A stretch of 64,000 nt of DNA from Planktothrix pseudagardhii (lineage in GTDB: Bacteria; Cyanobacteriota; Cyanobacteriia; Cyanobacteriales; Microcoleaceae): contig NZ_LR882967.1 of the NCBI RefSeq assembly GCF_904830925.1, positions 3,298,106-3,362,105 on the forward strand, given 5' to 3'. Shown in pieces: positions 4,601 through 62,874 of the stretch. Below the pieces are notes generated by a model. That model was not told the origin of the DNA. It did not search any database and saw only the letters and a list, made by a program, of their open reading frames with translations. The position numbers and the translations under genes are program-made. Numbering within the stretch: position 1 is the stretch's first letter; each line of letters begins with the position of its first letter.

Positions 4601-5300
4601 TAATACTTTGACCTTATCTCAAACCCAAGTGGGGAAAAAGGTACAGGTCAAAGTTAGTTATACTGACCTATTAGGGACAGCAGAAACGGTTAATAGTAGT
4701 CCGACTTCTGTGGTTACTAATATTAACGACGCTCCTACAGGAACAGTTAATATTACAGGAACAGCGACCCAAAATCAAACCTTAACCGCCACAAATACCT
4801 TAGCAGATGCAGATGGTTTAGGTACTTTTAATTATCAATGGCAACAGTCAGCCGATAATGGAGTCACCTGGACTAATATTAGTGGAGCGACTAATAATAC
4901 GTTCACCTTATCTCAAACACAAGTTGGGAAAAAGGTACAAGTAAAAGTTAGTTATACAGACCTATTAGGAACAGCAGAAACGGTTAATAGTTCACCTACA
5001 ACTACCGTTACTAATGTTAACGACTTACCCACAGGTAATGTTAGTATTACAGGGACAGCAAAACAAAATCAAACCTTAACGGCAACAAATACCTTAGCAG
5101 ATGTTGATGGTTTAGGAACATTAAATTATCAATGGCAACAGTCAGCCGATAATGGAGTCACCTGGACTAATATTAGTGGAGCGACTAATAATACGTTCAC
5201 CTTATCTCAAACACAAGTGGGGAAAAAGGTACAGGTCAAAGTTAGTTATACAGACCTATTAGGAACACAAGAAACGGTTAATAGTACACCCACAGCTACC
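1638..5300 (+). repeat. Array of about 12 near-identical 297-bp (99-aa) tandem repeats (VCBS-like adhesion repeat). Two more copies lie upstream of the IS.
   Basis: The motif GTTACTAATATTAACGACGCTCCTACAGG recurs every 297 bp (for example 1780 and 2077). The protein consensus is NDAPTGTVNITGTATQNQILTATNTLADADGLGTLNYQWQESADNGVTWTNISGATNNTFTLSQAQVGKKVQVKVSYTDLLGTAETVNSSPTSVVTNI. Confidence 0.85.
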
Positions 5301-8300
5301 GTTACTAATGTCACTGCCGTTAACCATGCTCCCGTATTAGATAATACCAACTTCACCTATAGCCTCACCCCTATTAACGAAGATGACAGCAACTCCAGTG
5401 GGGATACTGTCGGGAATCTTATTCCTCCACCTTTAGGTATCAAAGAAAACACCAACGTCTCCCTCCCCGGTGTTTACAGAAGTTCCGTCACCACAGCCGA
5501 CTTTGACAAAGATGGGGACACCGACATCCTACTCACGGGCAAAGATGGTTTTAATAACCGCATCAGCAAAATCTATAGCAACAATGGCAGTGGCGGTTTT
5601 AGCGAAAACACCAACATCTCCCTCACCGGTGTTTACAGAAGTTCCGTTACCACAGCCGACTTTGACAAAGATGGGTACACCGACATCCTGCTCACGGGCT
5701 CCTCTAGTTCTGGCCCCATCAGCAAAATCTATAGCAACAACGGCAGTGGCGGTTTTAGCGAAAACACCAACATCTCCCTCACCGGTGTTATATGGAGTTC
5801 CGTCGCCACCGCTGACTTCGACAATGATGGGGACACCGACATCCTGCTCACGGGCCAGGATGGTTCTGATAACCCCATCAGCAAAATCTATAGCAACAAC
5901 GGCAGTGGCGGTTTTAGCCTCAACACCAACGTCTCCCTCACGGGTGTTCGCTATAGTTCCGTCACCACCGCCGACTTTGACAAAGATGGGGACACCGATA
6001 TCCTGCTCACGGGCCGGGATAGTTCTAAGAAACCCATCAGCCAAATCTATAGCAACAACGGCAGTGGCGGTTTTAGCGAAAACACTAAGGTCTCCCTCAT
6101 CGGTGTTGACAGAAGTTCCGTCACCACCGCCGACTTTGACTCTGATGGGGACACCGACATCCTACTCACGGGCTACGCTGGTTATAATAACCCCATCAGC
6201 CAAATCTATAGCAACAACGGCAGTGGCGGTTTTAGCGAAAACACCAACATCTCCCTCACCGGTGTTTACAGAAGTTCCGTCACCACAGCCGACTTTGACA
6301 AAGATGGGTACACCGACATCCTGCTCACGGGCTTGGATGGTTATGGCCCCATCAGCCAAATCTATAGCAACAACGGCAGTGGCGGTTTTAGCCTCAACAC
6401 CAACGTCTCCCTCACGGGTGTTCGCTATAGTTCCGTCACCACCGCCGACTTTGACAAAGATGGGGACACCGACATCCTGCTCACGGGCAAGGATAGTTCT
6501 AGTAACCCCATCAGCAAAATCTATAACCATCTTTTCCCGATATCCGATGTAGACACCACCACCATCACCGAAGCCATTGCTATCACTGCTGCCGACAATA
6601 ACGGCACCTGGCAATATTCCACCGACAACGGCACAACCTGGACAAACTTCCCCGTTGTCAGCAACAGTAACGCCCTATTATTAGATCCGAGTAACAAAGT
6701 CCGCTTCCAACCCAACGCTGACTACAACGGGACTATTACCACTGCCCTCACCTTCCGCGCCTGGGATCAGTCCACAGGTACAGCCGGAACTACAGCCGAC
6801 ACTCGCATTAACGGCGGTACAACAGCCTTTAGCACCAACACCGCCACCGCCTCCATTGTGGTAACAGCCTTTAACAATACTCCCACTGCCACGGACAAAA
6901 CCCTAACCGTTAACGAAGACAACAACTACACCTTTACGACGGCGGACTTCGGTTTCAGTGATGTAGACACCACAGATACCCTAGCATCAATAAAAATCAC
7001 CCAACTGCCCACAGTGGGGACATTACAACTGAATGGCACTGCTGTTGCAGCTAACCAAGTGATCTCTGCTGTTGATATTCCCAGCTTAGTCTTCACCCCA
7101 GTTGCTAATGCTAACGGTAGCAGTTATGCCAACTTCAAGTTCACCGTTAATGACGGCATTATTGATAGTGTGGCAGCTAATACAATTACTATTGATGTTA
7201 CTGCCGTTAATGATATCCCTGTATTAAATACAGCTATTACCGCCCAGACCGCCAATCCAGATAGCAATTTCAATCTGAATATTGTTAATAACTTTAGCGA
7301 TATTGATGCAGGGGATAGTTTAACCTATAGCGCCACCTTAGCGGATGGTACAACCTTACCCAGTTGGTTAACTTTCAACACCACAACCGGAACATTTACC
7401 GGAAAACCCACTAATGCAGATCTCGGTAATCTTACTATCAAAGTTACAGCTAAAGATAGTAGTAATACTACAGTTGAAAACAGTTTCCAACTGACGGTTA
7501 ATAATACCAATACTCCGCCCACAGCCGCCAACAAAACCCTAACCGTTAACGAAGACAACAACTACACCTTTACGACGGCGGACTTCGGTTTCAGTGATGT
7601 AGACACCACAGATACCCTAGCATCAATAAAAATCACCCAACTGCCCACAGTGGGGACATTACAACTGAATGGCACTGCTGTTACAGCTAACCAAGTGATC
7701 ACTGCTGCTGATATTCCCAGCTTAGTCTTCACCCCAGTTGCCAATGCTAACGGTAGCAGTTATGCCAACTTCAAGTTCACCGTTAATGACGGCATTATTG
7801 ATAGTGTGACAGCTAATACAATTACTATTAATGTTATTGCCGTTAATGACTTACCCACAGGGAATATTAGTATTACAGGAACAGCCGAACAAAACCAAAT
7901 TTTAACGGCAACAAATACCTTAGCGGATGCAGATGGTTTAGGAACGTTTAATTATCAATGGCAAGAGTCAGCAGATAATGGAGTCACCTGGACTAATATT
8001 AGTGGAGCAACTAATAATACGTTTACCTTATCTCAAACCCAAGTAGGGAAAAAGGTACAGGTAAAAGTTAGTTATACCGATGGACAAGGAACCAAAGAAA
8101 CCGTTAATAGTAACCCAACCAATGCAGTCCTTTTGGGGGATATTATCGTCACCAAAGACACAGATAACGGTAAGGGAGATACCGAAGGAACTCTGAGTTG
8201 GGCGATAGACAGAGCCAATAAGAGCCCTGGAGCCGATACCATCAAACTCAATACCGATGTGCGTCTGAATTTTGGCGACGATGTGATACGGATGTGGAGT

Positions 8301-11300
8301 TTGATTGATAGCGATATGACTGTTGATGGGCAAGGACATACCATCAATGGGGATAATAATAATGATGGTACTGCGGATCAAGATGACCGTCCGATTTTCT
8401 TTGTCAAATCAGGGAATGTGAAATTTAAGAACCTGACCCTGAAAAACGCAGTTGCTAAGGGAGGCGATGGCTATAACTCCGGTGGTGGTGCGGGGATGGG
8501 AGGGGCACTGTTTATTTATCAAGGGAATGTCACGGTTGATGGGGTGAAGTTTGAGGGGAATGAAGCTAGAGGTGGTAATGGTACAGGGGGCAACGAGCAG
8601 TTTGGTGGTGGAATTGGGTTGCAGAAGATAGCAGCTAACAACGGTAGCAATGGTGGCTACGGTAGGAAGGGCATCAACGGCAGGAACGGCGAATGGGGCG
8701 ACAACGGCGGCAACGGCGGCGAAGGCGGCTGGGGCGGCTGGGGCGGCAGTGGCGGCAAAGGCGGCGAAGGCGGCAGAGGCGGCATCGGCGGCGACGATGC
8801 CATCGTCGGCATCGGCGGCAGTGGCGGCAAAGGCGGCGAAGGCGGCAGTGGCGGCTTCGGCGGCAGAGGCGGCTTCGGCGGCAAAGGTGGCAGAGGCGGC
8901 ATCGGCGGCAGAGAGGGCATCAGCGGCGTTGAAGGCACCGGCGGCCTTGGCGGCAGAGGCGGCTTCGGCAGCGGCGGCGGCAATGGCGGCAGTGGCGGCA
9001 TCGGCAGCGACGGCAGTGGCGGCTTGAGCAACTACGGCGGCAGAGGCGGCTTCGGCGGCGGCAGTGGCGGCATCGGTGGCAGCGACCTCATCTTTGGCGG
9101 TGCAGGGATGGGAGGAGCGATTTTTGTCCGGGAAGGCAACCTCACCATCACAGGCTCCAGTTTCTCAAATTCCAGAGCCGTTGGAGGATCAGGAACTGAC
9201 GATCGTGTCACCTCCGATGATGGACAAGGGTTTGGAGGAGCTATATTTGCCATCACCCAAGCAACGATAGATGCTCAGAAGGCGATTAATGACCAAGGTT
9301 TACCCACCTCACCCCCAACCGTCACCATTAGCAGTGACACCACCTTCTCAGGGAACTATGCCTTCAATGCAGCCACCAAAACTCAAGACTTTCAAGGAAC
9401 TAACCTTAACACTTATGCTGTGTTCAGTGGCGATATTAAAGTTGCCACCCCCGCAGCTATCTCCCAAACCATCAAAGCCAAAGCTTTAGATGGCCCCATC
9501 TCTGGAGCCACAGCCTTCCTAGACACCAACTTCAACCGCACCCAAGATAGCGATGAACCTGGTGCAACCACAGATGCTGCGGGTAATTTCACCCTGGAGA
9601 TTGCGGGTAACTTCGACCTCAACAGCAATGGCACTCTCGACTTCGATGAAGGGGAATATGTGGTCGTCGGTGGCACCGATGCCATTACCGGACAAGCCTT
9701 TACAGGCACACTGCGGGCAGTTCCCGGTTCTACGGTAGTTACCCCTCTAACGACTTTAATTTCTACCCTCGTCGATACAGGACTCACCCCAGAAGCATCC
9801 GAAACCCAAGTCAAAACTGCTTTGGGACTCCCCAGCACCATTAATTTAGCCACCTTTGATGCCATCGCAGCCGCCCAAGCGGGTTCTCCTGAAGGTTTAG
9901 CGGTGTTAGCGGCACAAGTGGCAGTGCAAACCCTGATTAGTCAAATCAGTAACTCCCTGCAAACGGTTATCGGTGTTAGCAGTAATAGCTTAGATGCTCA
10001 GGTGACTGGGAATCTAGCCCAACTCCTGCAAAGTGGCAGTTTCAATCTCAGTGATAGCACAGCGATTCAAACTTTGATTACTAACACAGTTGGTAATATA
10101 AACAGTTTATTAGCAGAGGTAGACCCAGCAGACAACACTATTAACCTAGAGGCGATTACCAACAATGCGGCTCAATTATCCCAAGTGATTGCCGCCAGTA
10201 ACCAGCAAATCCTGACCTCCACCACCACTGATGGCATCTTCCAAGCCCAAAAAGTCGCCCAAACCAGCGTCACAGAAGATTTAAGTGCCGCCTTCAGTGG
10301 TACAAAATCCTTTGACGAAGTCGTAGCTGAGAATACTGGAGAAGCCCTAACCACTCAAATTGCTACCACCACCATCGATACTTCTGTTATTGACCAACCC
10401 CCAACAGATCCCAACAACCCAGACACAGGAGGAACCATCATTGATAACGGTAACATTGACCCGAATCAAGAGGTTATTAATAGTAGCACCGTTGGGTTAA
10501 TAAATTCCGTTAATCCCACAACTCCAACTCCCTCAACTCCCACCCCAAAAACAACAAATCCCTCATCCCTGAGCGACCCCATCGAACAATTTATCGCTCG
10601 GAAAAATCTAACCTCCATTCCCACCAGTAACCCCCCCGATGACCTGCTCTTAGGAGATGAGCGTCCCAACTCCCTCAGTGGTGGTATCGGTCAAGATACC
10701 CTACTCGGTTATGGTGAAGTTGATTTCCTCTCAGGAAACCTAGGTCAAGATGTGATTTATGGTTTCCTTGGAAACGACCTAATTTATGGTGGAGCCGATG
10801 AAGACTGGGTGGGAGGCGGTAAAGACAATGACCTGATTTTCGGAGGTTTAGGAAACGATACCCTCAGTGGCGATTTAGGCAATGATACCGTATTAGGAGA
10901 AGTTGGAAACGACCTGTTAGTTGGTCATACTGGAGAAGATCTGTTGTCAGGAGGTACAGGGAACGATAACCTTTACGGTGGCGACGATAACGATCTGATT
11001 CATGGCGGTCAAGGCGACGATTTTGTAGATGGAAGTAACGGCGATGATTTAGTCACAGGAGATTTAGGCAATGATACCCTTAATGGTGGAGTCGGAACAG
11101 ATTCCCTCATTGGCGGTCAAGGAGCCGATATCTTTATGTTAAATCCGGGTGAAAATGGTGATTTTATCCTAGATTTTGTTGGAGGTAAGGATCTGTTAAA
11201 ATTGACGCAAAATTATAATTTTAATCAGCTTACCATCCTTCAAGGGAGTGGAACTCAAGCCGGAAATACCTTGATTCAAGTCGCAGCCAATAATGAACTT

Positions 11301-50777: not shown

Positions 50778-53700
50778 TCAAGCAACACGGGTATAAATAC
50801 TTTTTCCCTGACCAAAATAAGAATCGTAAACGTGTTGATATACCTCTTGACATTTCTGCTGATATAATTCCGTTGAGTAACGCTGGGGTAAGCGATCTAA
50901 AATCTCCTCAACTGTTAGTTGTACCGCCGCACGGGTTCGCTGTCGCTTGCGCCAGTCCAACACCAATTTTTCCCGTTTGAGGGTTTCTAATAACTGTTGG
51001 GCGACCTTCTTAACGTCTTGCTTCTCTTTTTCTGTTAAATCAATATTGGGTTTCGTCAGTAAATCTAAAATTGCTAATTCTTCCTCTTCCAGATTTTCCG
51101 AAATAGCCCGTTGATCTTCAATATTTAATTCTTGGGCAAATTCTACTAAATCTTGAAAGAATGTTTCGATATTGCGACAACCTGCATTATATTCATCTAT
51201 CATTTGCTGAAACTTGTTTAAATAATTCATCCGGCTTTTATTAAGATTAACCATCTGGGTTAGCTTGATGCTAATTTGTCCTTTAAGTTTTTCGGCTTCC
51301 GTGCGTTGATAACCTGTGGCAAATTTAGCCTTCAATGCTTCAAAATCAACTTGACTTAAATCGATGATTTGTTCAGATTCAGAAATCACATATTTTAAAG
51401 TTCCAATGGATTGATCTAAAATTTCCTCAACGGCTTGTTTCACTTCTGAGATATCGACTGCTGGTGTTAACGAACGAATGCGATCGCTAATTACAGTAAA
51501 TAGATACTGCATTGAGGTAAAATCATCAGCAACGGGATCAGGTAGAATTGCTTTATACAGTTTAATTACATTTCTAACGAGGGCAAAATAACGCTGTTTG
51601 GATTCCTCATTAATTAGAATAGCTTCTCCTGCATCACAGATTAATTTAATGCGTTCAAATACTGGCGCAGATTGCAGTTTTTCTAAATTAATTTCTCGTT
51701 CTGTACAAAAATTAGTCGCTTCTAATATTGCCTTTCGCAACTCTTCTATTAATGCCGTTTTTGCTTGTACTGGGGTGTCTCCTTCTTGGACTCCTCCGCC
51801 AGAAGCTGAACCATAAATGGCTAAGGCTTTTTGCAAGTTGCAAAATACGCCAATATAATCAACAATTAACCCATTAACTTTATCTTTAAATACCCGATTT
51901 GCTCTGGCGATGGTTTGCATTAAGGTATGGTTCAACATCGGTTTATCGAGGTAAATGGTTGAACAACTGGGAACATCAAAACCCGTAATCCACATCGCAC
52001 AAACAAACACAATTCGCAGGGGATGATCTGCATCTTTGAATTTTTCGTCTAATTCTTCATTAACTAACCGTTTTCGGTGGGGTTGAATGTCTAAATTTTT
52101 TTTCTGAAATGCGTCTATTTCATTCTGAGATTGAGAAATGATCACCGCCATATCGGTTGTTTGCATATAATTAATCTGTGCTTCCAGACGTTCTCGTTCT
52201 GGGGCTTCTGCGGTGTCTAATTGACTTTGTAAGGTGGTTAAATATTGTTGCCAATATGCCTGTACTTTGTTGTACATTTTAACGGCTGTAAAGCGGTCAA
52301 TGGAAATCACCATTGCTTTTCCTTGGTGTCCCCGTCCTAAAAAATGAGTAACAATATCTTGGGCAATTGTTTCTAACCGTTCATCACGGGTAATTAAATG
52401 ATATTCCCGCGAAAATTCCCGTTCTAATTTATGTTCTGCTTCTTCATCTAAATTAGCAGATTCTATCGCGTAGGCTATATTTTCATTGACTTCTGTATTG
52501 GTTATTTGTAATTGTGGAATGCGGTTTTCATAATATAATGGAACTGTGGCGTTATCTTCGATGGATTGTTTGAAATTATAAACACTAATATAATCGCCAA
52601 ACTCTCGTTTAGTGGCTTCTTCTCCAATCATTAAGGGTGTACCCGTAAAACCAATAAATCCAGCGTTGGGTAAGGCGCGTCTCATATTTTTTGCAAAGGT
52701 ATCATATTGGCTGCGGTGGGCTTCATCTGCGATAACAATCACATCTTCTCGGTCGGAAAGTTGCGGATAGTTTTCGCCTTTAGCGGTGCGGAATTTCTGA
52801 ATTAATGTAAAAATATAACGGTGATCTTCTTGTAACAGTTGTTTTAAATGGTCGCTACTTTTCGCCCTAACTTCTTTTTCGGGTTCGGTAACAGCGCCCG
52901 TTTTGGCGAAATTTTTATAAATTTGGTTGTCTAAATCATCTCGGTCGGTGATAATAACAAACGTCCAATTTCCGGTAATTTGGCGATGCACTTTTTGAGA
53001 AAAGAACTGCATCGAAAAGCTTTTACCGCTTCCTTGGGTATGCCAAAATACCCCTAAACGTCCTTGATTTTCCCGAATTTGTTTAACGGCTTCTATGGCA
53101 TTATTAACACCGAGATATTGATGATTTTTGGCGACAAGTTTAATAATTTGCCCTTTTTCTTCACTAAATAACGTAAAGTTTTCGATAATATCTAATAATT
53201 TATTTTTCTCGCAGGTTCCCCGAATCATGGTATCGAGAGAAATAATCCCTGTTTCCCCTTCTGAGTTGATTTTTTTCCATTCGGCGAAGTGTTCCCAATT
53301 GGCGGTAACGCTACCAATACGGCTATCTGACCCATTGGAGAAGATAACAATTCCGTTATACCAAAACAGTTGAGGAATAGTGTTTCTATAATCACAGAAG
53401 TTATCCTGATAAGCTAAATCTAAGCGTTTATAATGGGCTTTTAATTCAATAAATAATAGGGGAATTCCGTTTACAAAACCAATTAAATCAGCGCGGCGAG
53501 TGTACATTTCCCCGGATACCCAGAATTGAGAGGCGAGGAAAAAGTCGTTTTCCGTTGGGGTTTTCCAGTTGATAATTTGGACTTTTTCGGTAATTTCTTC
53601 GTTGTCGGTGTTGCGGTAGGTGACGTTTACGCCATCTTTGAGGAGTTTATAAATTTCGCGGTTAGCGTTAGCGAGGCTTAAGGCGCTTCTGTCACTAATG

Positions 53701-53927
53701 AGTTTTTCAATAGCAAGGTTAATGGCTTCGGTGGGGAGGGTGGGGTTGAGTTTTTCTAAGGCGGGGCGCAGTTTGGAAATTAGCACAACTTCGGCTTTTG
53801 TTTCTCGTCCTAATGTGCTGTTATTGCCGATTTTTTCAGAATAGCAATTAGCGGTGGTATAGCCGAGTTGTTCAAAAAGTTTAAGGGTTTCGAGTTCTAG
53901 GGCTGGTTCTGAGTCTGGGTTAAGCAT
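50778..53927 (-). CDS. hsdR: Type I restriction enzyme R subunit.
   Basis: It is 1049 aa with an N-terminal nuclease region and SF2 helicase motifs (...WHTQGSGKSFSM..., DEAH-like IADEAHRSQ, QTIARANR). It lies downstream of hsdS and hsdM on the same strand. Confidence 0.9.
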   Translation of the reverse strand: MLNPDSEPALELETLKLFEQLGYTTANCYSEKIGNNSTLGRETKAEVVLISKLRPALEKLNPTLPTEAINLAIEKLISDRSALSLANANREIYKLLKDGVNVTYRNTDNEEITEKVQIINWKTPTENDFFLASQFWVSGEMYTRRADLIGFVNGIPLLFIELKAHYKRLDLAYQDNFCDYRNTIPQLFWYNGIVIFSNGSDSRIGSVTANWEHFAEWKKINSEGETGIISLDTMIRGTCEKNKLLDIIENFTLFSEEKGQIIKLVAKNHQYLGVNNAIEAVKQIRENQGRLGVFWHTQGSGKSFSMQFFSQKVHRQITGNWTFVIITDRDDLDNQIYKNFAKTGAVTEPEKEVRAKSSDHLKQLLQEDHRYIFTLIQKFRTAKGENYPQLSDREDVIVIADEAHRSQYDTFAKNMRRALPNAGFIGFTGTPLMIGEEATKREFGDYISVYNFKQSIEDNATVPLYYENRIPQLQITNTEVNENIAYAIESANLDEEAEHKLEREFSREYHLITRDERLETIAQDIVTHFLGRGHQGKAMVISIDRFTAVKMYNKVQAYWQQYLTTLQSQLDTAEAPERERLEAQINYMQTTDMAVIISQSQNEIDAFQKKNLDIQPHRKRLVNEELDEKFKDADHPLRIVFVCAMWITGFDVPSCSTIYLDKPMLNHTLMQTIARANRVFKDKVNGLIVDYIGVFCNLQKALAIYGSASGGGVQEGDTPVQAKTALIEELRKAILEATNFCTEREINLEKLQSAPVFERIKLICDAGEAILINEESKQRYFALVRNVIKLYKAILPDPVADDFTSMQYLFTVISDRIRSLTPAVDISEVKQAVEEILDQSIGTLKYVISESEQIIDLSQVDFEALKAKFATGYQRTEAEKLKGQISIKLTQMVNLNKSRMNYLNKFQQMIDEYNAGCRNIETFFQDLVEFAQELNIEDQRAISENLEEEELAILDLLTKPNIDLTEKEKQDVKKVAQQLLETLKREKLVLDWRKRQRTRAAVQLTVEEILDRLPQRYSTELYQQKCQEVYQHVYDSYFGQGKSIYTRVA

Positions 53928-54146
53928 ATTAATTTTAAAGGTTAGATTTTAGGCATTTTCGGGGTAGTCGATTTTAAGCTGGTAGGTCATAGGGGAATAA
54001 TGGGGTTTGTAATTAGTGGTTTAAGCAGCAATGTTTCCGGTGTTGATGTCGAGGTTTTCAACATCTATTTCACCGGAGATGAGTTTGGGGAGGAGGAGAT
54101 CGCGGGTTTGGCGAAGATTTGCATTTTTAAGCTTCAGATGTTTAAC

Positions 54147-55163
54147 CTAAGTTAAAAGACTATCGATAATGTTGTTAAATTGTTTCAATAGTATTTCTCT
54201 GGGGACAATTACAGGAATACGATTTAGATTAGTTTGGTTAATTTTAGGTTGGGCTGCACCTGTAATGTATCCAGAAATATCTAAATCTGACATAAATAAG
54301 TACAAATAATTTGTTGATATTGGTTCTTTTCCCTGGATAACATGAGTATGATTGTTAGCCCAAAATTTTTCATCAACTAATTGTAGAACAGGATGCCTAT
54401 CTTTTGTAATTACACTGCCATCTTCTGCCACTAATAAATATCTACCTTCAAAAATATAGTTATTGATGTAATCAAAAATTTTAGCCGCACCATAGTATGG
54501 ATATTTCCCCTGAATCTTAGCTCTCTGGAGCGATGAAAGAGGCTTCCTTTTCTTGTCAAAATTCAGTGAGACTTCGCCGAAATTTTTAACTTCCCAACCT
54601 TCAGGAATTAAACCCAATTCTGAATCAACCATTTTGACTTGTTCGTGTCCGGGGAAACGGAAGTTAACGAACCATTCACGATAGAGCGATCGCGCCATTT
54701 CTTCTAATATCTTTATTCGCCGCGTATTGTTTTCGATTAGGTCATCATAAGTTGAGAGAATAGCAGCAATTTTGCGTTGTATTGGGAGAGGAGGAAACCT
54801 AACAGGGATTGTATGAATATGGTTTCTGTTCAATGTTGGATTTGCTGCACCACAATCATACTGCTCTAAATGTAGAGTTTGAAGGAAATAGTATGCAAAC
54901 TTTTCATGGTTTCCGTGAAAATCTTTTACCCAAAGCGTAGTGTCAGTCGGCCAAAAATCCTGAGTAGCAAAAAAAACCGTACCCAGGGTTCCTTTTCTAC
55001 CTATAACAACACCAGGAGCTTTCACTTTAAAATCGCTATGTTTACCACCAAAGCCAGATGAAAAAATTACATCATATTTTCCAGGTGTTAATTCTTTCTT
55101 GGTGATATCAAAGCCTCTTTGAAAGGTAATTAATTCACCTAGATTTGCTTCTTTCCAATTCAT
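54147..55163 (-). CDS. hsdS: Type I restriction-modification specificity subunit (338 aa, shorter than a typical two-TRD subunit).
   Basis: It has target-recognition-domain architecture with conserved central and C-terminal helices (..[40 protein letters not shown]...). It sits between hsdM and hsdR. Confidence 0.75.
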
Positions 55164-55191
55164 TAAATTTATCCTTTTCCCTCATTAACTT

Positions 55192-55605
55192 TTAAGAACT
55201 AGCATCAATGACCAACTGTTTAAACAAAGAAACTGAAATAATTTTAGTATCTTCCCAGGTTTTTACTTCAGTTAAATCTCTATCTCCTGTAATCAAAAAA
55301 TCAGCCTTAGCCACCACAGCACAAGCCAGAAACTTAGCATCTTTTCTATCTCTAGGGAAATCTACCTCAACATTTACTTCTAAAACTGTAGTAAATTGCT
55401 CTATAAAAGTTAACCACTCTGTCCGTATTTCTTCCGTTAAAGGAAACTTGGGACGATTTAAAACTTCCTTGTATTCAGTTAAAATCTCTGGTGATATAAT
55501 CCATTCATAATTAGGATGATCAGCCACAAACTGAATCACAATTCTCGGATTGCGTCCTTTTAGAACAGCAGATACTAAGACATTGGTATCAATAATAACT
55601 TTCAT
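55192..55605 (-). CDS. PIN-domain ribonuclease toxin (PIN_3 / TIGR00305-type).
   Basis: The N-terminus MKVIIDTNVLVSAVL and the C-terminal acidic residues (...ADFLITGDRDL) are PIN signatures. The start overlaps the upstream small ORF by 4 nt (ATGA). Confidence 0.7.
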   Translation of the reverse strand: MKVIIDTNVLVSAVLKGRNPRIVIQFVADHPNYEWIISPEILTEYKEVLNRPKFPLTEEIRTEWLTFIEQFTTVLEVNVEVDFPRDRKDAKFLACAVVAKADFLITGDRDLTEVKTWEDTKIISVSLFKQLVIDASS

Positions 55606-55841
55606 TCTCCTCTACGATAAGCCTCAATTTCTGCGGTAATTTCTTCTTCAGTAATATCTTCTACTCCTGGTAAAGCCTGGGTGCGGTCAAATAATTCTCG
55701 TAACTTTCGACTCATTTCTGCACGGGGATTTTCTTCTGCTAAAATAATCACCTCTACTCGCTGTCCAGGTTGAAAAGGTAAATCTGATAAAATCACCTGT
55801 TTCGGGTCTTCTATCGTGATGTAAGCTTTATAAGCATTCAT
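55602..55841 (-). CDS. Putative antitoxin partner of the PIN toxin (79 aa, family unrecognised).
   Basis: This is a small acidic ORF. Its stop overlaps the PIN start, the classical toxin-antitoxin gene-pair geometry. Confidence 0.5.
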   Translation of the reverse strand: MNAYKAYITIEDPKQVILSDLPFQPGQRVEVIILAEENPRAEMSRKLRELFDRTQALPGVEDITEEEITAEIEAYRRGE

Positions 55842-55909
55842 AAATAGTTCCTCTTAATTAACGGCTGAAAGTTTAATCTCATTTTCCTTAACTTAATTAT
55901 ACTCATCCC

Positions 55910-57469
55910 TCAAACCCCTAAAATTTGCGCGATATTCTCAGCAATTCGTTCTTCTAACTCCCTCGCCTCAACATTTAAACTCTCCAATTCCTCATTCAAT
56001 TCTTCCAACTTTTCAGCAAAATCAAAATCCTCCACCGGACGTTCGGCGACGCCCACATAACGCCCAGGATTCAAACTCCAACCCTGCGCCTCAATTTCCG
56101 CCCTTGTCGCCACCCGACATAACCCCGCCACATCTTGATAAGCTCCTTCTGGAAAATAAGTATCGAGTAAAATTTTACTGCCATTTTTTGTGTCCGGTGC
56201 TTCCCCTCGGTACAATCTCACAATATTAGAAATAAATTCTACCTGTTCATCCGTAAACTCGCGGTGGGCGCGGTCAATTTGTCGGTAAATGTGCCGCGCA
56301 TCAATAAATAACACCTTTTCTTTGCGATGGGTTTTCGCCTTTCCTTTATCGAAAAACCACAAGGTACAAGGCAACGTTACCGTATAAAAGAAATTAGAAC
56401 TAACGGCAATCATCACATCCACCGCCCCCGTTTTAATCAATTCCTGCCGAATTTCTAACTCAGAACCCCGTGCATCCGAAGCAGAATTCGCCATCACAAA
56501 CCCCGCCCGTCCCGTAGGATTTAAAGCCGTATAAAATAACTGAATCCACAGATAATTCCCATTGTCTACCTTCGGTTTAGCAAACGGAAATCTAGGATCA
56601 TTTTCCAATCGTTCCTTATCCACTCCATCCACATTAAACGGGGGATTTGCCATCACAAAATCAAACTGTTCTACGCAGTTGTGAATATCCTCATAATAAG
56701 TATTTCCCTGGCGAATATTCCGTAAACCCGAAACCCCATGAACCGCCAAGTTCATCTGACACAATTTAACAGTTCCTTCCGTCTTTTCCTGACCATAAAC
56801 ACTAATAGCAGTATTCGGGTCACGTCCTAACTTTTCCCTGACTCGCATCGCACTTTGCACAAACATTCCCCCCGCCCCACAAGCCGGGTCAAGAATCAAT
56901 CCATGATACGGTTCTATTACTTCTACAATTAACTTAACCACCGAAATCGGCGTAAAAAATTCCCCGCCTTTTTGTCCTTCCTTTTGGGCAAAATTACCCA
57001 AAAAATATTGATAAATTTCCCCAAAGGCATCCTCACCAATTTCTGCTAATTTAATTCGATTAAACGTTTTTAATAACTCTCGCAGCGTTGGTTTTTCTAA
57101 TCGATTATAATCTTTCAGTAAAATTCCTTTTAATTCTTCATTTTCATCTTCTATCGCTTTCATCGCTTGATTAATGGCTGTACCAATATCTTCAGCTTCC
57201 GGCAAATTCAGCAAATAATCAAACCGGGCTTTTTCTGTTAAAAATAACGCCCCTTTCGCCTGATAGTCCAGCTTTCCCACACTGCGGCGACGGGTACTCA
57301 CCCCCGCTAATTCTTGTTCAACCAAACTGAATTTATAATCCGCATAACGTAAGAAAATCAGCCCCAATACGGGTACAGAATATTCCGAGGGTTTGAGTTT
57401 GGAATTCGCCCGCAGTTCATCGGCGGCTTCCCAAAGACGTTTTTCGAGTTCGGTATAATTAGCAGGCAT
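55910..57469 (-). CDS. hsdM: Type I restriction-modification N6-adenine DNA methyltransferase.
   Basis: It has the HsdM N-terminal domain, the AdoMet motif ([12 protein letters not shown]) and the catalytic NPPF ([11 protein letters not shown]). Confidence 0.9.
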
Positions 57470-57562
57470 TTATCAATCGTTAATCGTACAATTATTGTAT
57501 AGCGCTACGCGCAAGGGAACAGGGAACAGTAAGAATTGAAAGGGTTTTATGGAACATATCAA

Positions 57563-59416
57563 TTATCGAGATACAGGTTTAACCTGTTCTAAAAATTGTT
57601 GTAATTCCTCCCCTTCAATGACTTCTGTTTTCAATACTTTGCCAGCAATTTCATCTAATAATTCTCGGTTGTAATTCAAAATTGCTAACGCTTTTTGATG
57701 AGCATTATTAACAATATCTTTCACCTCATCATCAATGGCTTCTGCGGTTTTTTCACTCATGGGACGGCGAAGATTAGCATCAGCATTACCTAAAAAATTA
57801 TTCTGTTTGGCTTTTTCATAAGCTAAGGGTCCCAAGGCTTTACTCATGCCATAATTAAGTACCATTCTTTCGGCTAATTCCGTAGCCCGTTGTAGGTCAT
57901 CCGATGCGCCATTGGTAACAGTTCCAAAGATTAATTCTTCAGCAGCCCGTCCCCCTAATAGCATGGCAATTTGTTCGCGGAATTCCAGTTCATCCATTAA
58001 AAAACGGTCTTCCGTTGGCATTCTTAAGGTATATCCTAACGCGGACATTCCCCTGGGTACAATGGAAATTTTAGTCACTTTTCCCCCTCCCGGCATTAAC
58101 GCCCCGACTATCGCATGACCAACTTCATGATAGGCGACAATTTTCTTCTCTTTTTCATTCAACACACGGCTGCGTTTTTCTAACCCAGCAACCACCCGTT
58201 CAATGGCTTCATAAAAATCCTCTTGCTTCACCGTTTTTCGTTGATTTCTAGCCGCTAATAAAGCAGCTTCATTGACTAAATTCGCTAATTCTGCCCCCCC
58301 AAAACCTGGGGTTCTTGTGGCAACAGCGTGTAAATCAACATCCGTTTCTAATTTAACTTTTTTAACGTAAATATCTAAAACGGCTTTGCGTCCGGCTAAG
58401 TCGGGTCTGTCTACTAAAACCTGTCTATCAAAGCGCCCAGGACGTAATAATGCCGCGTCTAAAGCTTCGGGACGGTTAGTTGCGGCTAAGACAATTACCG
58501 TTGCATCTCCCACTCCAAACCCATCCATTTCTGTTAATAATTGGTTCAGGGTTTGTTCTCGTTCATCACTACTGCCACTTTGGAAACTGCCACTACTTCT
58601 GGATTTACCAATGGCATCTAATTCATCAATAAAAATAATACAAGGAGCTTTCTTTTTCGCCTGTTCAAATAAGTCTCGAACTCTCGCCGCACCCGTTCCC
58701 ACAAATAACTCAATAAATTCCGAACCAGATATACTAAAAAAGGGAACTCCGGCTTCTCCGGCTACGGCTTTTGCTAATAGAGTTTTTCCGGTTCCGGGGG
58801 GGCCGACTAATAACACACCTTTGGGAATTTTAGCTCCAATTTCCGTAAACCGTTGGGGATTTTTTAAGAAATCCACAATTTCTGCTAATTCGGTTTTGGC
58901 TTCGTCTACTCCGGCGACATCTGCAAAGGTAATATTATCCGTTTGACCTTTAACATAAACTTTAGCTTTACTTTTATTAATGGATAATGATCCTTGGGGA
59001 TCTCGTTTCATGAAATATTGAAACGCCACGACTAAAATTAAAGGGGGAATCACCCAATTTAAAATAACACTTAACCAACTTTGTTTCGGGGGTGGAGAAG
59101 CGGCAAATTCAACTCCTTTGGCTTCTAAACGTTTGGGAAGTTCTAAATCAAAAATCGGGGTGGTGGATAAGATGCTTTCAGGTTGATTATTGTCTGCTTT
59201 GATTTGGTAAAGGATTTCGTTTTCTCCGACTAAAACTTTGGAGACTTTACCATCTTCAATTTGTTGGATAAAAAAACTATAGGGAACTTTAGGAAAACGA
59301 GGACGAGTCAGTTGAGGAAACAACCAATTTCCGATTAAAATCACCCCGGCTGAGATTAATAAAATCTGGGCAACTTTTTGAGAACTGGGTAATTTAGGTC
59401 TTTTTTTAATCTTCAT
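57563..59416 (-). CDS. ftsH: ATP-dependent zinc metalloprotease FtsH (paralog 1).
   Basis: It has an N-terminal TM region, an AAA module ([33 protein letters not shown]) and the HEVGHA zinc motif. Confidence 0.9.
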   Translation of the reverse strand: MKIKKRPKLPSSQKVAQILLISAGVILIGNWLFPQLTRPRFPKVPYSFFIQQIEDGKVSKVLVGENEILYQIKADNNQPESILSTTPIFDLELPKRLEAKGVEFAASPPPKQSWLSVILNWVIPPLILVVAFQYFMKRDPQGSLSINKSKAKVYVKGQTDNITFADVAGVDEAKTELAEIVDFLKNPQRFTEIGAKIPKGVLLVGPPGTGKTLLAKAVAGEAGVPFFSISGSEFIELFVGTGAARVRDLFEQAKKKAPCIIFIDELDAIGKSRSSGSFQSGSSDEREQTLNQLLTEMDGFGVGDATVIVLAATNRPEALDAALLRPGRFDRQVLVDRPDLAGRKAVLDIYVKKVKLETDVDLHAVATRTPGFGGAELANLVNEAALLAARNQRKTVKQEDFYEAIERVVAGLEKRSRVLNEKEKKIVAYHEVGHAIVGALMPGGGKVTKISIVPRGMSALGYTLRMPTEDRFLMDELEFREQIAMLLGGRAAEELIFGTVTNGASDDLQRATELAERMVLNYGMSKALGPLAYEKAKQNNFLGNADANLRRPMSEKTAEAIDDEVKDIVNNAHQKALAILNYNRELLDEIAGKVLKTEVIEGEELQQFLEQVKPVSR

Positions 59417-59820: not shown

Positions 59821-60888
59821 ATGAGTAATCATGTAGAATTGCCTATTTTTCTGGATGAGGTATCATTACCAGAAACCCTTCCTCCCCTAATGATAGTTGC
59901 ATTTACGCGCCCCGATTTGCTGTCACAGGTTCTTCCAGCAATTAGGCAGCAATCTTTACTACCACAAAATATTATTGCCTTTGTTGATGGCCCACGGAAG
60001 GCAGATGACGAACCCTTGATTCGGCAGTGTATTGAGTTACTAAAAGCATTTTCCACATTTATACCCGTTCATATCGTCGCCAGAACAAAAAACTTAGGGT
60101 GCGACCAAAACGTAATTTCAGGTTTGACAGAGGTTTTTTCGACTTACGATTCTCTGGTATATTTAGAAGATGATACAGTTCCCAACCCTCATTTTTATGA
60201 TCGGATGTGCCGACTTTTATCAGCCTATCGTGACTGCCAACAAGTGGGTTCAGTCAGCGCTTATGCCAACTTCCCTTCAGAATGTGATGAACTGTTATCA
60301 AAAGATTTTATGATATCTAACCGTTTATTTTCTTGGGGTTTTGGGACTTGGCGCGATCGCTGGAATGAACTCAATTTAGCCCATCAACCAGCACAATACA
60401 ATCCGTTTGGTAGCTTTTATAAAATTCCAGCAACTAAACAGACGAAAATGACAATGATCAATCAATTTTGGCTGGAAAAAAAACAACAAACAGATTGGGT
60501 AATTACATTTACAGTAGCATCTTTATATCATCAAAAGGTACATATAATTCCGACTACTTCCTTGGTTTACAATATCGGATTTGGACATCCTGAATCTAAA
60601 ACCTATAAAGGGCAAGAGGAGGCGTGGGTAAATTCAAGGTACGATGCCGAGTTTTGTCCGAATAGCTTACCCTCTAATCTTGAATTGTCTGACTGTCTAA
60701 AACTCGACCCAGAAAACGTTGAACTAGCAGAACACTTATGGAAAAATTGTATATGGCTAAGTCCATCGGCTCTAGTTTATTTGTTGCAGAAATATGGTAG
60801 CTTCAGGAGTATGATTTTATTCCTAAAAATTTTCGTAACTCGTTTGCCTGTTCTGTTGAGGCGCTGGCGCAATGGACTACCGATATAA
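59821..60888 (+). CDS. Hypothetical protein, possibly a GT-A-fold glycosyltransferase-like protein.
   Basis: The N-terminal LMIVAFTRPDLLSQVLPAIRQQ resembles the Rossmann-like start of GT-A transferases. A DxD-like motif sits at YLEDDTVP. The assignment is tentative. Confidence 0.3.
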   Translation: MSNHVELPIFLDEVSLPETLPPLMIVAFTRPDLLSQVLPAIRQQSLLPQNIIAFVDGPRKADDEPLIRQCIELLKAFSTFIPVHIVARTKNLGCDQNVISGLTEVFSTYDSLVYLEDDTVPNPHFYDRMCRLLSAYRDCQQVGSVSAYANFPSECDELLSKDFMISNRLFSWGFGTWRDRWNELNLAHQPAQYNPFGSFYKIPATKQTKMTMINQFWLEKKQQTDWVITFTVASLYHQKVHIIPTTSLVYNIGFGHPESKTYKGQEEAWVNSRYDAEFCPNSLPSNLELSDCLKLDPENVELAEHLWKNCIWLSPSALVYLLQKYGSFRSMILFLKIFVTRLPVLLRRWRNGLPI

Positions 60889-60975
60889 TAATCTGGGGTT
60901 CAATCAGGGTTTATTTGTCCATTCCCTATTCCCTGGTAGAACCAGGGAACGAGGCGTCGAGGCGTATGAGATCAA

Positions 60976-62874
60976 TTATGCGATCGCGGCGGGAATTTTA
61001 CCCTCATACTTAACTTGATTTAACAAATGTTGCAAATTGTCCCCTTCAATGACTTCCGTTTGTAAGATTTGTTGGGCAATTTGTTCCATTAACTCTTTAT
61101 TTTGATTCAGGATATCTAGGGCAACTTCATGGGCTTGTTCAACCAATTGTTTAACCTCATCATCAATCGCTTTTGCTGTTTCATCGCTGACATAACGACG
61201 AGGATTCATCATCATATTATCGCCGAGAAAATTGTTTTGTTGACCCTTTTCATAAGCCAACGGCCCTAATACTTTACTCATCCCATAACTGGTGACCATG
61301 CGTTCAGCTAAATCCGTCGCCCGTTGTAAGTCATTTGTTGCCCCTGTGGTAATACTTCCAAACACCACTTCTTCGGCAGAACGTCCCCCTAATAAGGTGG
61401 CAATTTCGGCTTTCATTTCTTCTTCACTGAGCAAGAAACGGTCTTCGGTTGGCAGTTGTAAGGTATATCCTAATGCAGCCATTCCGCGTGGCACAATGGA
61501 GATTTTAGCCACTTTATTTTGACCAGAAACAACAGCGCCAACAATCGCGTGACCGACTTCATGATAAGCCACAATTTTCTTCTCTTTTTCATTGAGAACA
61601 CGGGATTTTTTTTCTAACCCCGCAACTACCCGTTCAATGGCTTCTGCAAAGTCCGCTTGGCTGACGGTTTCCCGTTTATTTCGAGCGGCTAATAAGGCAG
61701 CTTCATTAACTAAATTGGCTAAATCTGCCCCTGCAAAACCGGGGGTACGAGTGGCGATCGCTTTTAAGTCAACATCCGTCCCAATTTTAACTTTTTTAGC
61801 ATAGATTTCTAAAATTAGTAACCGACCGGATAAATCAGGACGATCCACTAAAACTTGACGATCAAATCGACCGGGACGCAGTAAGGCGGGGTCTAACGTT
61901 TCCGGGCGGTTTGTAGCCGCTAAAACGATTACCGTTGCTTGTCCGGCTGCAAACCCATCCATTTCGGTTAATAACTGGTTTAGGGTTTGTTCTCGTTCAT
62001 CATTTCCCCCATACATTCCGCCACTCGACCGTGATTTTCCAATGGCATCTAATTCATCAATAAAGATAATACAAGGGGCTTTCTTTTTGGCTTGTTCAAA
62101 TAAATCTCGAACCCGCGCTGCCCCTGCGCCAACGAACAATTCGACGAATTCTGAACCCGAAATGCTAAAGAATGGAACACCCGCTTCTCCGGCTACGGCT
62201 TTAGCTAATAAGGTTTTTCCGGTTCCAGGAGGGCCGACTAATAATACGCCTTTAGGAATTCTGGCTCCGATTTGTAAAAATCGTTGGGGAGTCTTAAGAA
62301 ATTCCACCACTTCTTCTAATTCGGTTTTGGCTTCTTCAACCCCTGCCACATCTTTGAACGTGACTTTTGTGGCATCATTTTCCACATAAACTTTGGCTTT
62401 ACTCTTACTAATGGAAAGTGCCCCTTGTGGCCCTCCAATTCCTCCCCCTCGGCTTTGTAAGAATTGTCCGACAGCCACCCAAATTCCCACAAAAATTAAG
62501 GGGGGAACTACCCAACCAATTAAACTCGAAAACCAAGTATTCTGAGGAGGTGGGGCAGCCGCAAATTCAACGCCTTTGGCTTCTAAACGTTTGGGTAAAT
62601 CCATATCAAAAATCGGAGTTGTTGATAGGATTTGTCCCGGTTTTTCCTGTTCTCCTTTTACTAAATAGCGAATTTGATCTTGACTGAGATAAACTTGGGA
62701 AACTTGCCCATCTTCCACTTGTTCAATAAATAAACTATAGGGAACACGAGGAATTTGTGGCCCGAATAATCCGGGTAATGTCAGGTTAGCAATTAAGAAG
62801 ATTACACCCAACCAAAATAAAATACTTCCGATGGGAAGATTTCGGGGAAATTTAGGTTTGTCTTTTACACTCAT
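60976..62874 (-). CDS. ftsH: ATP-dependent zinc metalloprotease FtsH (paralog 2).
   Basis: The architecture and motifs match paralog 1, at about 75% identity with a distinct N-terminal/periplasmic region. Confidence 0.9.

Follow-up and report, generated by a model that had tools for sequence, protein, structure and literature searches.

Organization of the operon

A 64-kb stretch of Planktothrix pseudagardhii DNA (hereafter the window) carries a Type I restriction-modification (R-M) operon on its minus strand, with a putative toxin-antitoxin (TA) pair lodged between the methyltransferase gene hsdM and the specificity gene hsdS. The pair consists of a 79-aa open reading frame (ORF), referred to here as AT79, and a gene for a PIN_3 protein; the restriction/translocase gene hsdR follows hsdS. 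All five ORFs were confirmed by their coordinates (Table 1). An earlier interpretation made from the letters of the DNA alone (the sequence-only reading) had given the order as hsdM, antitoxin-like ORF, PIN_3, hsdS and hsdR, and coordinates, domains and sequence agree with it, including the ATGA overlap formed by the stop codon of AT79 and the PIN start codon. The gap between PIN and hsdS measures 28 nt. A consensus scan of the sigma-70 type, which may miss cyanobacterial promoters, found no minus-strand promoter or terminator in the hsdM-AT79 spacer; it gave no hits between the genes, and its overall number of sites was not above that in shuffled sequence. Given the short spacers (68 and 28 nt), the lack of promoter- or terminator-like matches and the ATGA overlap, the pair is probably co-transcribed with hsdM and hsdS.

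The R-M subunits are recognized by profile. HsdM matches N6_Mtase (PF02384, 7e-83), HsdM_N (PF12161, 4e-20) and the PADLOC family MTase_I (3e-224), and is equal in length to its homologues in a sister strain (L081, GCA_904830955.1) and in a further locus, L064. The Methylase_S profile (1.5e-36) is matched by HsdS in two stretches. HsdR contains HSDR_N (PF04313, 7.5e-43), SWI2_SNF2 (PF18766, 3e-76), T1R_D3-like and T1RH-like_C domains, with family matches to TIGR00348 (7.6e-153) and PADLOC REase_I (2e-174). Because its closest solved relative is the HsdR of EcoR124I (E 3e-33), the R-M system is called distantly Type IC-like (EcoR124I-like) by sequence. Planktothrix (tepida/pseudagardhii) records hold identical AT79, PIN and HsdS proteins.

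Table 1. Features of the hsd operon in order of reading, with positions in the window. TRD, target recognition domain.
Feature	Position	Strand	Remarks
hsdM, Type I methyltransferase subunit	55910-57469	minus	519 aa, apparently intact
Spacer hsdM-AT79, 68 nt	55842-55909	minus	GAGGA ribosome-binding site 8 nt 5' of AT79 ATG
AT79, putative antitoxin, unannotated family	55602-55841	minus	79 aa
PIN_3 (COG1569/TIGR00305), putative RNase toxin	55192-55605	minus	137 aa
hsdS truncated ORF, 338 codons	54147-55163	minus	TRD1, central helix D1, TRD2, first ~17 residues of distal helix D2
In-frame amber codon TAG, hsdS codon 339	54147-54149	minus	Translation through the stop
Orphaned hsdS 3' end	54021-54146	minus	41 in-frame codons + TAA (54021-54023); encodes conserved D2 end
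hsdR, Type I restriction/translocase subunit	50778-53927	minus	1049 aa, apparently intact
TRD2 segment without DNA match in sister strain L081	54130-54587	minus	blastn of window against L081, tblastn with L081 TRD2
Tract with zero differences from sister strain, 1,505 bp	54793-56297		hsdM 3' end, AT79, PIN, hsdS 5' part

The PIN_3 protein and AT79

The PIN_3 toxin call of the sequence-only reading is borne out by profile scores well above the curated cut-offs, both for PIN_3 (PF13470, 1.2e-20, 74.9 bits against 27) and for TIGR00305 (8e-23, 80.9 bits against 29.15), and by a VapC-like model. In an alignment of 24 PIN homologues D6, E44, D86, D89 and D110 are invariant and D108 is conserved in at least 90%; the window protein has all six, so the toxin call stands after a check for missing catalytic acidic residues. 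The AlphaFold (AF2) model of the protein (predicted local distance difference test, pLDDT, 81; predicted template modelling score, pTM, 0.78) has VapC toxins from solved VapBC complexes among its top Foldseek matches, namely Rickettsia VapBC2, Haemophilus VapBC-1 and several M. tuberculosis VapBCs. As modelled, the PIN_3 protein resembles VapC in its fold. No match to PDB sequences was found at E≤1, and a profile search revealed no ATPase or sensor domain. PIN also matches the PADLOC families HEC-03A and PDC-M11A, but so weakly (E 1e-4 to 6e-3) and so incompletely that membership was rejected.

Close homologues of AT79 number 300, with 71-100% identity to it among the 120 listed. Most of those with names belong to Nostocales or other filamentous cyanobacteria, and every one carries the annotation "hypothetical". 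An exhaustive profile search (E≤1e-3) extended the family to 357 clusters at 50% identity, nearly all of ~80 aa. The ratio of nonsynonymous to synonymous polymorphism (pN/pS) has a median of ~0.21 over 74 comparisons, indicating purifying selection, and judged by these sequences AT79 is a real, conserved protein. Nothing in Pfam matches it even at E≤10, 38 diverged family members gave scattered single Pfam matches only, no PADLOC family was found, and the AT79 profile returned only noise (E≥0.19) from PDB sequences. The one curated family that resembles it is RelN (NCBIfam NF050107), at 18.6 bits and over residues 1-39 only, with similar weak matches in 6 of the 38 members; the score is far under the cut-off of 70 bits, and membership was rejected. 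The antitoxin family was described as unrecognized in the sequence-only reading, a fair label that the searches uphold.

The AF2 monomer of AT79 has strands at residues 3-9 and 28-34 and helices at 39-56 and 65-76 (pLDDT 73, pTM 0.34). Foldseek matched it only to Ebola GP2 and ribosomal proteins with probability <0.3, a result that we judge meaningless and that one would expect when an extended antitoxin is modelled as a low-pTM monomer. Neither the Pfam and PDB sequence searches nor the model tie AT79 to a DNA-binding fold known from antitoxins (AbrB/SpoVT, ribbon-helix-helix (RHH), Phd/YefM or helix-turn-helix), and the monomer model speaks neither for nor against a dimeric domain of beta-barrel type. 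The regions 5' of AT79 in 78 loci form several unrelated groups with no universal motif, and a common promoter or operator was not found among them.

Distribution of the AT79-PIN pair

A scan of one genome per species yielded 161 stretches encoding AT79 relatives; 80 loci were analysed, of which 77 were evaluable. The sample was ascertained through AT79, and a PIN gene without AT79 could not have shown up in it. A full-length PIN gene lies directly 3' of AT79 in 53 of the 77 loci, with the same overlapping start in 45 of these 53, so the two genes are not a chance juxtaposition of ORFs. PIN is truncated or frameshifted in 15 of the 77 loci and absent from 9, and AT79 remains full-length in 23 of these 24; the exception is L061, where the ATG is lost. 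Decay of PIN while AT79 is kept fits a toxin/antitoxin relationship, as a TA system predicts. From its position, size and coupling and from this pattern of PIN decay, we infer that AT79 is a putative antitoxin.

Genes or remnants of hsd type adjoin the pair in 7 of the 80 loci (~9%), while it stands alone in 73 (~90%). The high share of standalone pairs indicates, at the level of sequence comparison, an autonomous, mobile cassette with no sign of a specific tie to R-M. The hsd-linked loci fall into two architectures. The first, hsdM-AT79-PIN-hsdS, is seen in L035 and L064 and, reduced to remnants of hsdM, in L066 and L001; it is also the layout of the window and of its sister L081. In the second, which involves another Type I family, the pair lies 3' of hsdS (L042, L050, L053). 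PIN is missing from L042 and L053, where a ParD/ParE-like pair follows AT79. By eye, many standalone pairs lie among other small paired genes, seemingly in TA-rich islands, as in the flanks of AT79 in L012 and L024.

R-M genes around the cassette

All six loci of the hsdM-AT79-PIN-hsdS type (the window, L081, L064, L035, L066 and L001) have intact TA ORFs, and the R-M genes have fared differently. The locus is fully intact in L081. In L064 hsdS is frameshifted and no hsdR is adjacent, in L035 (Chlorogloea sp. CCALA 695) hsdR is split and adjoins an IS200-like gene, and in L066 and L001 only hsdM debris is left. The R-M genes present a mutational target ~9 times that of the TA pair, which makes the asymmetry between damaged R-M genes and intact TA genes weak evidence either way; as far as these sequences go, R-M damage around an intact pair lends no support to the idea that the pair keeps an R-M system in working order.

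Two of these loci hold further features. In L035 an extra gene of 339 aa (2119-3138), by eye a DUF1016/YhcG-type nuclease, lies between PIN and hsdS, and the IS200-like gene (184 aa, 4963-5517) lies between hsdS and the split hsdR. In L001 (Planktothrix sp. PCC 11201; 9001-9175 and 9953-10664) the cassette has 96% DNA identity and occupies another genomic site, with two short hsdM fragments 5' of it and no hsdS or hsdR; either the cassette moved with pieces of hsdM attached, or its R-M neighbours were deleted.

The hsdM-hsdS junction as an insertion site

A metagenome scan with HsdM as query gave 80 loci at 54-78% identity, and the 66 with hsdS downstream were evaluated. In 56 of them hsdS directly follows hsdM, and the other 10 carry inserts of 0.3-1.2 kb, in none of which AT79 or PIN_3 was found. 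Genes recognizable by Pfam occur in 7 of the 10 inserts: ParD with a nucleotidyltransferase (MNT) in L084 and L085, DUF6883 and DUF4926 with an MNT gene in L087, ParD with ParE in L088, a DUF5615 PIN-like gene in L107, PRiA4_ORF3 in L108 and an IS200 transposase in L155. Other TA-type genes are present in 5 of the 10. With AT79-PIN included, the hsdM-hsdS junction of this one hsdM family has received at least five different cassettes of TA type. By these sequence comparisons the junction looks like a recurrent landing site for TA cassettes, and the arrival of unrelated TA families at the same place speaks for a site that is permissive or prone to recombination, and not for a co-evolved partnership. 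A landing site of this kind agrees with published observations: Type I R-M, BREX and DISARM systems often contain embedded genes (Payne et al. preprint), the hsdS-hsdR site of DarTG2 in enteropathogenic E. coli (EPEC) has been proposed as a recombination hotspot (PMC12255303), and PIN TA modules are coupled to Type I subunits in arrangements that are not conserved between close species (PMC5499597).

The contents of the hsd-linked sites suggest that TA cassettes replace or stack on one another there. ParD/ParE-like genes recur in hsd contexts. They follow the orphan AT79 3' of a different hsdS in L042 and L053 (10001-10813), and a ParD-like gene lies between PIN and hsdS in L064 (2654-2923), all three identified by eye from similarity to the L088 proteins; in L088 itself ParD/ParE stand alone in the hsdM-hsdS junction (2933-3534, Pfam-checked).

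Truncation of hsdS

The sequence-only reading took the 338-aa HsdS for a possible single-TRD or half-size subunit, an idea that the comparison with relatives overturns. Two TRDs are present and the gene is cut by a nonsense codon: the length is set by an in-frame TAG at position 339 of a 380-codon gene, and the intact HsdS of L081 has 376 aa. The window protein aligns along its length with the L081 HsdS and with two-TRD homologues. A half-size or single-TRD form was rejected on the two Methylase_S stretches, the match of TRD1-D1 to L081 and the alignment of TRD2 to two-TRD homologues. The published architecture of HsdS is S1-D1~S2-D2, in which D1 pairs with D2 as an antiparallel coiled coil (PMC3874165). 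The window protein is not complete in this sense, as it has both TRDs and D1 and its D2 is cut after ~17 residues.

The C-terminus encoded by the 41 orphaned codons also ends the intact HsdS of L081, L035 and L064. Ten HsdS proteins with the same TRD2 (60-71% identity) all read through the amber position, and the Gln found there in 6 of the 10 fits a single change of CAG to TAG. Since the orphaned codons are still in frame and conserved, the lesion appears to be one base and recent, and not a designed end. The amber codon removes ~60% of the D2 helix, the most conserved HsdS motif included, and in the M.EcoKI model HsdM's C-terminal part is set against the D1/D2 coiled coil (PMC2647291). Because so much of D2 is lost together with this motif, we infer defective assembly of HsdS, and the R-M system is probably r- m-. 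By sequence the locus is a Type I system by descent and probably not a working one. Any inactivation would be recent, since hsdM and hsdR keep their full length and, compared with L081, evolve under purifying selection (pN/pS 0.07 and 0.20). The notion that annotators call the 338-aa HsdS a pseudogene was not upheld: an exact-product look-up came back empty, yet the identical protein is a homologue-search record (P0241).

The sister strain and the recombination mosaic

L081 has the same locus in the same chromosomal context. The TRD1-D1 protein is identical in the two strains, with 5 synonymous differences in its DNA. The TRD2 segment has no DNA match between them (8019-8464 in L081) and only 28% protein identity, although elsewhere the two strains share 97-98% identity. 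The exchanged segment contains the amber codon, 18 nt in from its 3' edge. Divergence in the D2 tail reaches 20%, and the spacers between hsdS and hsdR are unrelated (93 nt in the window, 365 nt in L081). By its sequence pattern the TRD2 difference is a classic TRD exchange between alleles, and with TRD2 wholly different the recognition specificities of the two strains should differ. On-site phase variation of the tvr/ivr kind was rejected as its cause because no second hsdS copy is present: a tblastn search with the L081 TRD2 found no second HsdS-like sequence anywhere in the window. No recombinase ORF occurs in the operon (no search aimed at inverted repeats was made).

The 1,505-bp tract listed in Table 1 is centred on the TA cassette and, the hsdM-AT79 spacer included, is 100% identical in the two strains. 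At the local mean rate the tract should hold ~43 differences; bordering hsdM sequence (56298-57155) carries ~60. An identical tract beside diverged hsdM makes the locus a recombination mosaic, and the pattern suggests recent homologous recombination.

Several features lie outside the operon. The flanking genes encode FtsH, a MoCF_biosynth-domain (MoaB-like) protein and Psb28. A second long run identical to L081 spans roughly 57438-58513. Between the two FtsH paralogues, a 355-aa ORF on the plus strand (59821-60888) has no blastn match in L081, and an element of ~100 nt present once in the window (60928-61031) occurs in L081 in at least 4 copies spaced 195 nt apart (2374-3054). At 5001-11000 G+C is 0.47-0.55, against 0.36-0.45 in most of the window, and GC skew swings strongly. 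This region is not an rRNA/tRNA cluster, because there is no tRNA gene, Rfam match or structured RNA anywhere in the window; no amber suppressor tRNA was thus found within these 64 kb.

Discussion

We consider it probable that the AT79-PIN pair is an autonomous VapBC-like cassette, made up of an unannotated antitoxin and a PIN_3 RNase toxin, that was inserted at the permissive hsdM-hsdS junction, is probably co-transcribed there, and serves a generic TA or abortive-infection function that is not specifically coupled to the enzyme. It would be a mobile type II TA cassette that landed in this junction of a Type IC-like Planktothrix operon. By analogy with its family, the 137-aa PIN_3 protein would be a Mg2+-dependent VapC-like RNase, and AT79 would neutralize it, probably through its two C-terminal helices wrapped over the active site. 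The N-terminal beta-region of AT79 may, on the same grounds, serve dimerization and/or operator binding. Were antitoxin synthesis halted, for example by phage-induced shut-off or by loss of the locus, the toxin would be freed and growth arrested, again as the family would lead one to expect. Transcription of the pair probably starts at the hsdM promoter and takes in hsdM and hsdS as well, and the ATGA overlap may provide translational coupling. No dedicated molecular link to the enzyme is indicated; the junction would repeatedly capture small TA cassettes, as in the co-localization of genes in defence islands.

Several points weigh against this account. Co-transcription was deduced from absent consensus signals, in a scan that, as said, is tuned to sigma-70-type sites. 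The fold of the AT79 monomer is only moderately confident and unlike anything solved, and its mode of binding toxin or DNA is deduced. The 7 of 80 hsd-adjacent loci, which are phylogenetically non-independent, stand well above a chance expectation of ~1%, itself a rough estimate that was not computed, and the cassette may have some functional affinity for R-M loci. Finally, the fully intact L081 operon indicates that an embedded pair can coexist with a working R-M system.

The sequence-only reading raised the possibility that the pair stabilizes the R-M locus or acts specifically with it, and neither idea fares well given a pair that is standalone in ~90% of loci and R-M genes that are mostly damaged or lost beside it. 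As a stabilizer, the pair would penalize deletion of the R-M locus by post-segregational killing, so that the defence is kept. Such addiction is a published hypothesis for defence islands (PMC5499597; PMC4963859), and it gains from the position of the pair inside the operon, from its probable co-transcription and from the same embedded arrangement at the same chromosomal site in two Planktothrix strains. We nevertheless regard it as unlikely: R-M genes are damaged or lost beside an intact pair in the window, L064, L035, L066 and L001, a TA cassette is unable to shield neighbouring genes from point mutations, and pneumococcal tvrAT, the one embedded TA of this sort to have been tested by experiment, showed no addiction phenotype (PMC6265443). 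Less probable still is a guardian or second-line abortive-infection role, with PIN held by or sensing the Type I enzyme and firing when a phage anti-restriction protein acts. PrrC in EcoprrI is a precedent (PMC12707154), the Planktothrix R-M system falls in the same broad, Type IC-like class, and the cassette recurs beside Type I genes in two architectures (7 of 80 loci); but PIN has its own dedicated antitoxin and is mostly standalone, whereas PrrC occurs almost exclusively in Type I systems, it has no ATPase or sensor domain and matches HEC-03A and PDC-M11A only weakly, unrelated TA families at the same junction elsewhere argue for a permissive site over a co-evolved partner, and the pair is intact where the R-M system is lost. 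Assignment to the PrrC/RloC-type class of R-M-embedded guardians was rejected on the missing ATPase domain and the small share of hsd-linked loci. We give equally little credence to the junction being a dedicated integration hotspot that recruits interchangeable TA cassettes as functional R-M accessories, maybe as abortive-infection back-ups firing on R-M inhibition or loss, with AT79 as a new antitoxin class tied to the Hsd complex.

A separate matter, compatible with any of these readings, is whether the R-M system is still active, with the TAG a sequencing or assembly error or read through, or with the 338-aa HsdS assembling with HsdM, perhaps in an altered way. The full length and low pN/pS of hsdM and hsdR would fit this, as would the annotation of the identical HsdS as a normal protein in a public record and the finding that some engineered Type I systems can function with an S subunit that is split or truncated (PMC3874165). 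Known functional truncations, however, drop a whole TRD and not half a helix (PMC3874165), and the part lost here comprises the most conserved motif and most of D2, near HsdM's C-terminal part in the M.EcoKI model. The orphaned codons have the marks of a recent one-base lesion, every homologue examined with the same TRD2 reads through the amber position, and a suppressor tRNA was not found in the window, the part of the genome searched. On balance, continued activity seems rather doubtful, and loss of function by truncation of HsdS remains our preferred view.

Embedded TA modules in Type I R-M operons are already known, and this locus is one more instance. The statement in the sequence-only reading that TA modules nested in Type I loci have been reported is correct, with DarTG2, Phd-Doc and PIN modules coupled to Type I subunits as published cases. 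A close parallel is Ssr8013-Slr8014 from Synechocystis pSYSG (PMC4963859), also a cyanobacterial pair of a small upstream antitoxin and a PIN_3 toxin, in antitoxin-toxin order and near Type I R-M genes. The plasmid has three PIN-type TA pairs clustered with Type I genes in one defence island, and the PIN3 toxin Slr8014 inhibits growth, degrades mRNA in E. coli and is neutralized by its antitoxin (PMC4963859). Toxicity and neutralization are experimental there and, by analogy, are predicted for AT79-PIN. AT79 also differs from the antitoxins of this pair and of VapBC systems in matching, by sequence, none of the DUF2281, AbrB/MazE, Phd/YefM, HicB or RHH families; it belongs to an unannotated family of ~80 aa. 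RelN of the Synechocystis relNEs pair (ssr1114/slr0664) is likewise a cyanobacterial antitoxin of ~80 aa with weak N-terminal resemblance to AT79, but its partner is a RelE toxin and not a PIN toxin.

Three other systems share the nested arrangement. DarTG2 in the EPEC Type I R-M island (PMC12255303) is a TA module placed between Type I operon genes, there hsdS and hsdR; its toxin ADP-ribosylates DNA, it has a repressor, RptR, and its anti-phage activity has been demonstrated. The Planktothrix cassette instead lies between hsdM and hsdS, encodes a predicted PIN RNase, has no regulator gene in sight and sits beside a truncated hsdS. The pneumococcal tvr locus (PMC6265443) has a Phd-Doc-like TA pair, tvrAT, between hsdM and hsdR of a Type I system in which strains differ in their hsdS TRDs. 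Phase variation in tvr relies on a recombinase and several TRD cassettes and shuffles TRDs on site, whereas the window has no second hsdS and its operon no recombinase, and TRD2 of Planktothrix differs between strains by what appears to be allelic exchange. PrrC in EcoprrI (Type IC) is an RNA-targeting toxin whose gene is embedded in an hsd operon of Type IC kind. It is a single ABC-ATPase/nuclease protein silenced by the R-M enzyme and found almost only in Type I loci, unlike the Planktothrix PIN protein with its own antitoxin, its distribution mostly away from R-M genes and its lack of an ATPase domain.

What the locus adds is modestly new: an uncurated antitoxin family and evidence of repeated hits at this junction. 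The AT79 family, abundant among filamentous cyanobacteria, is absent from Pfam, NCBIfam and PADLOC, and its curation would let annotation recognize these PIN_3 pairs as TA systems. For the growth of defence islands by insertion, the hsdM-hsdS junction of a single hsdM family offers a natural model. The sister strains, with an identical cassette, an intact and an amber hsdS and different TRD2 sequences, offer a ready comparison for methylome and phage resistance.

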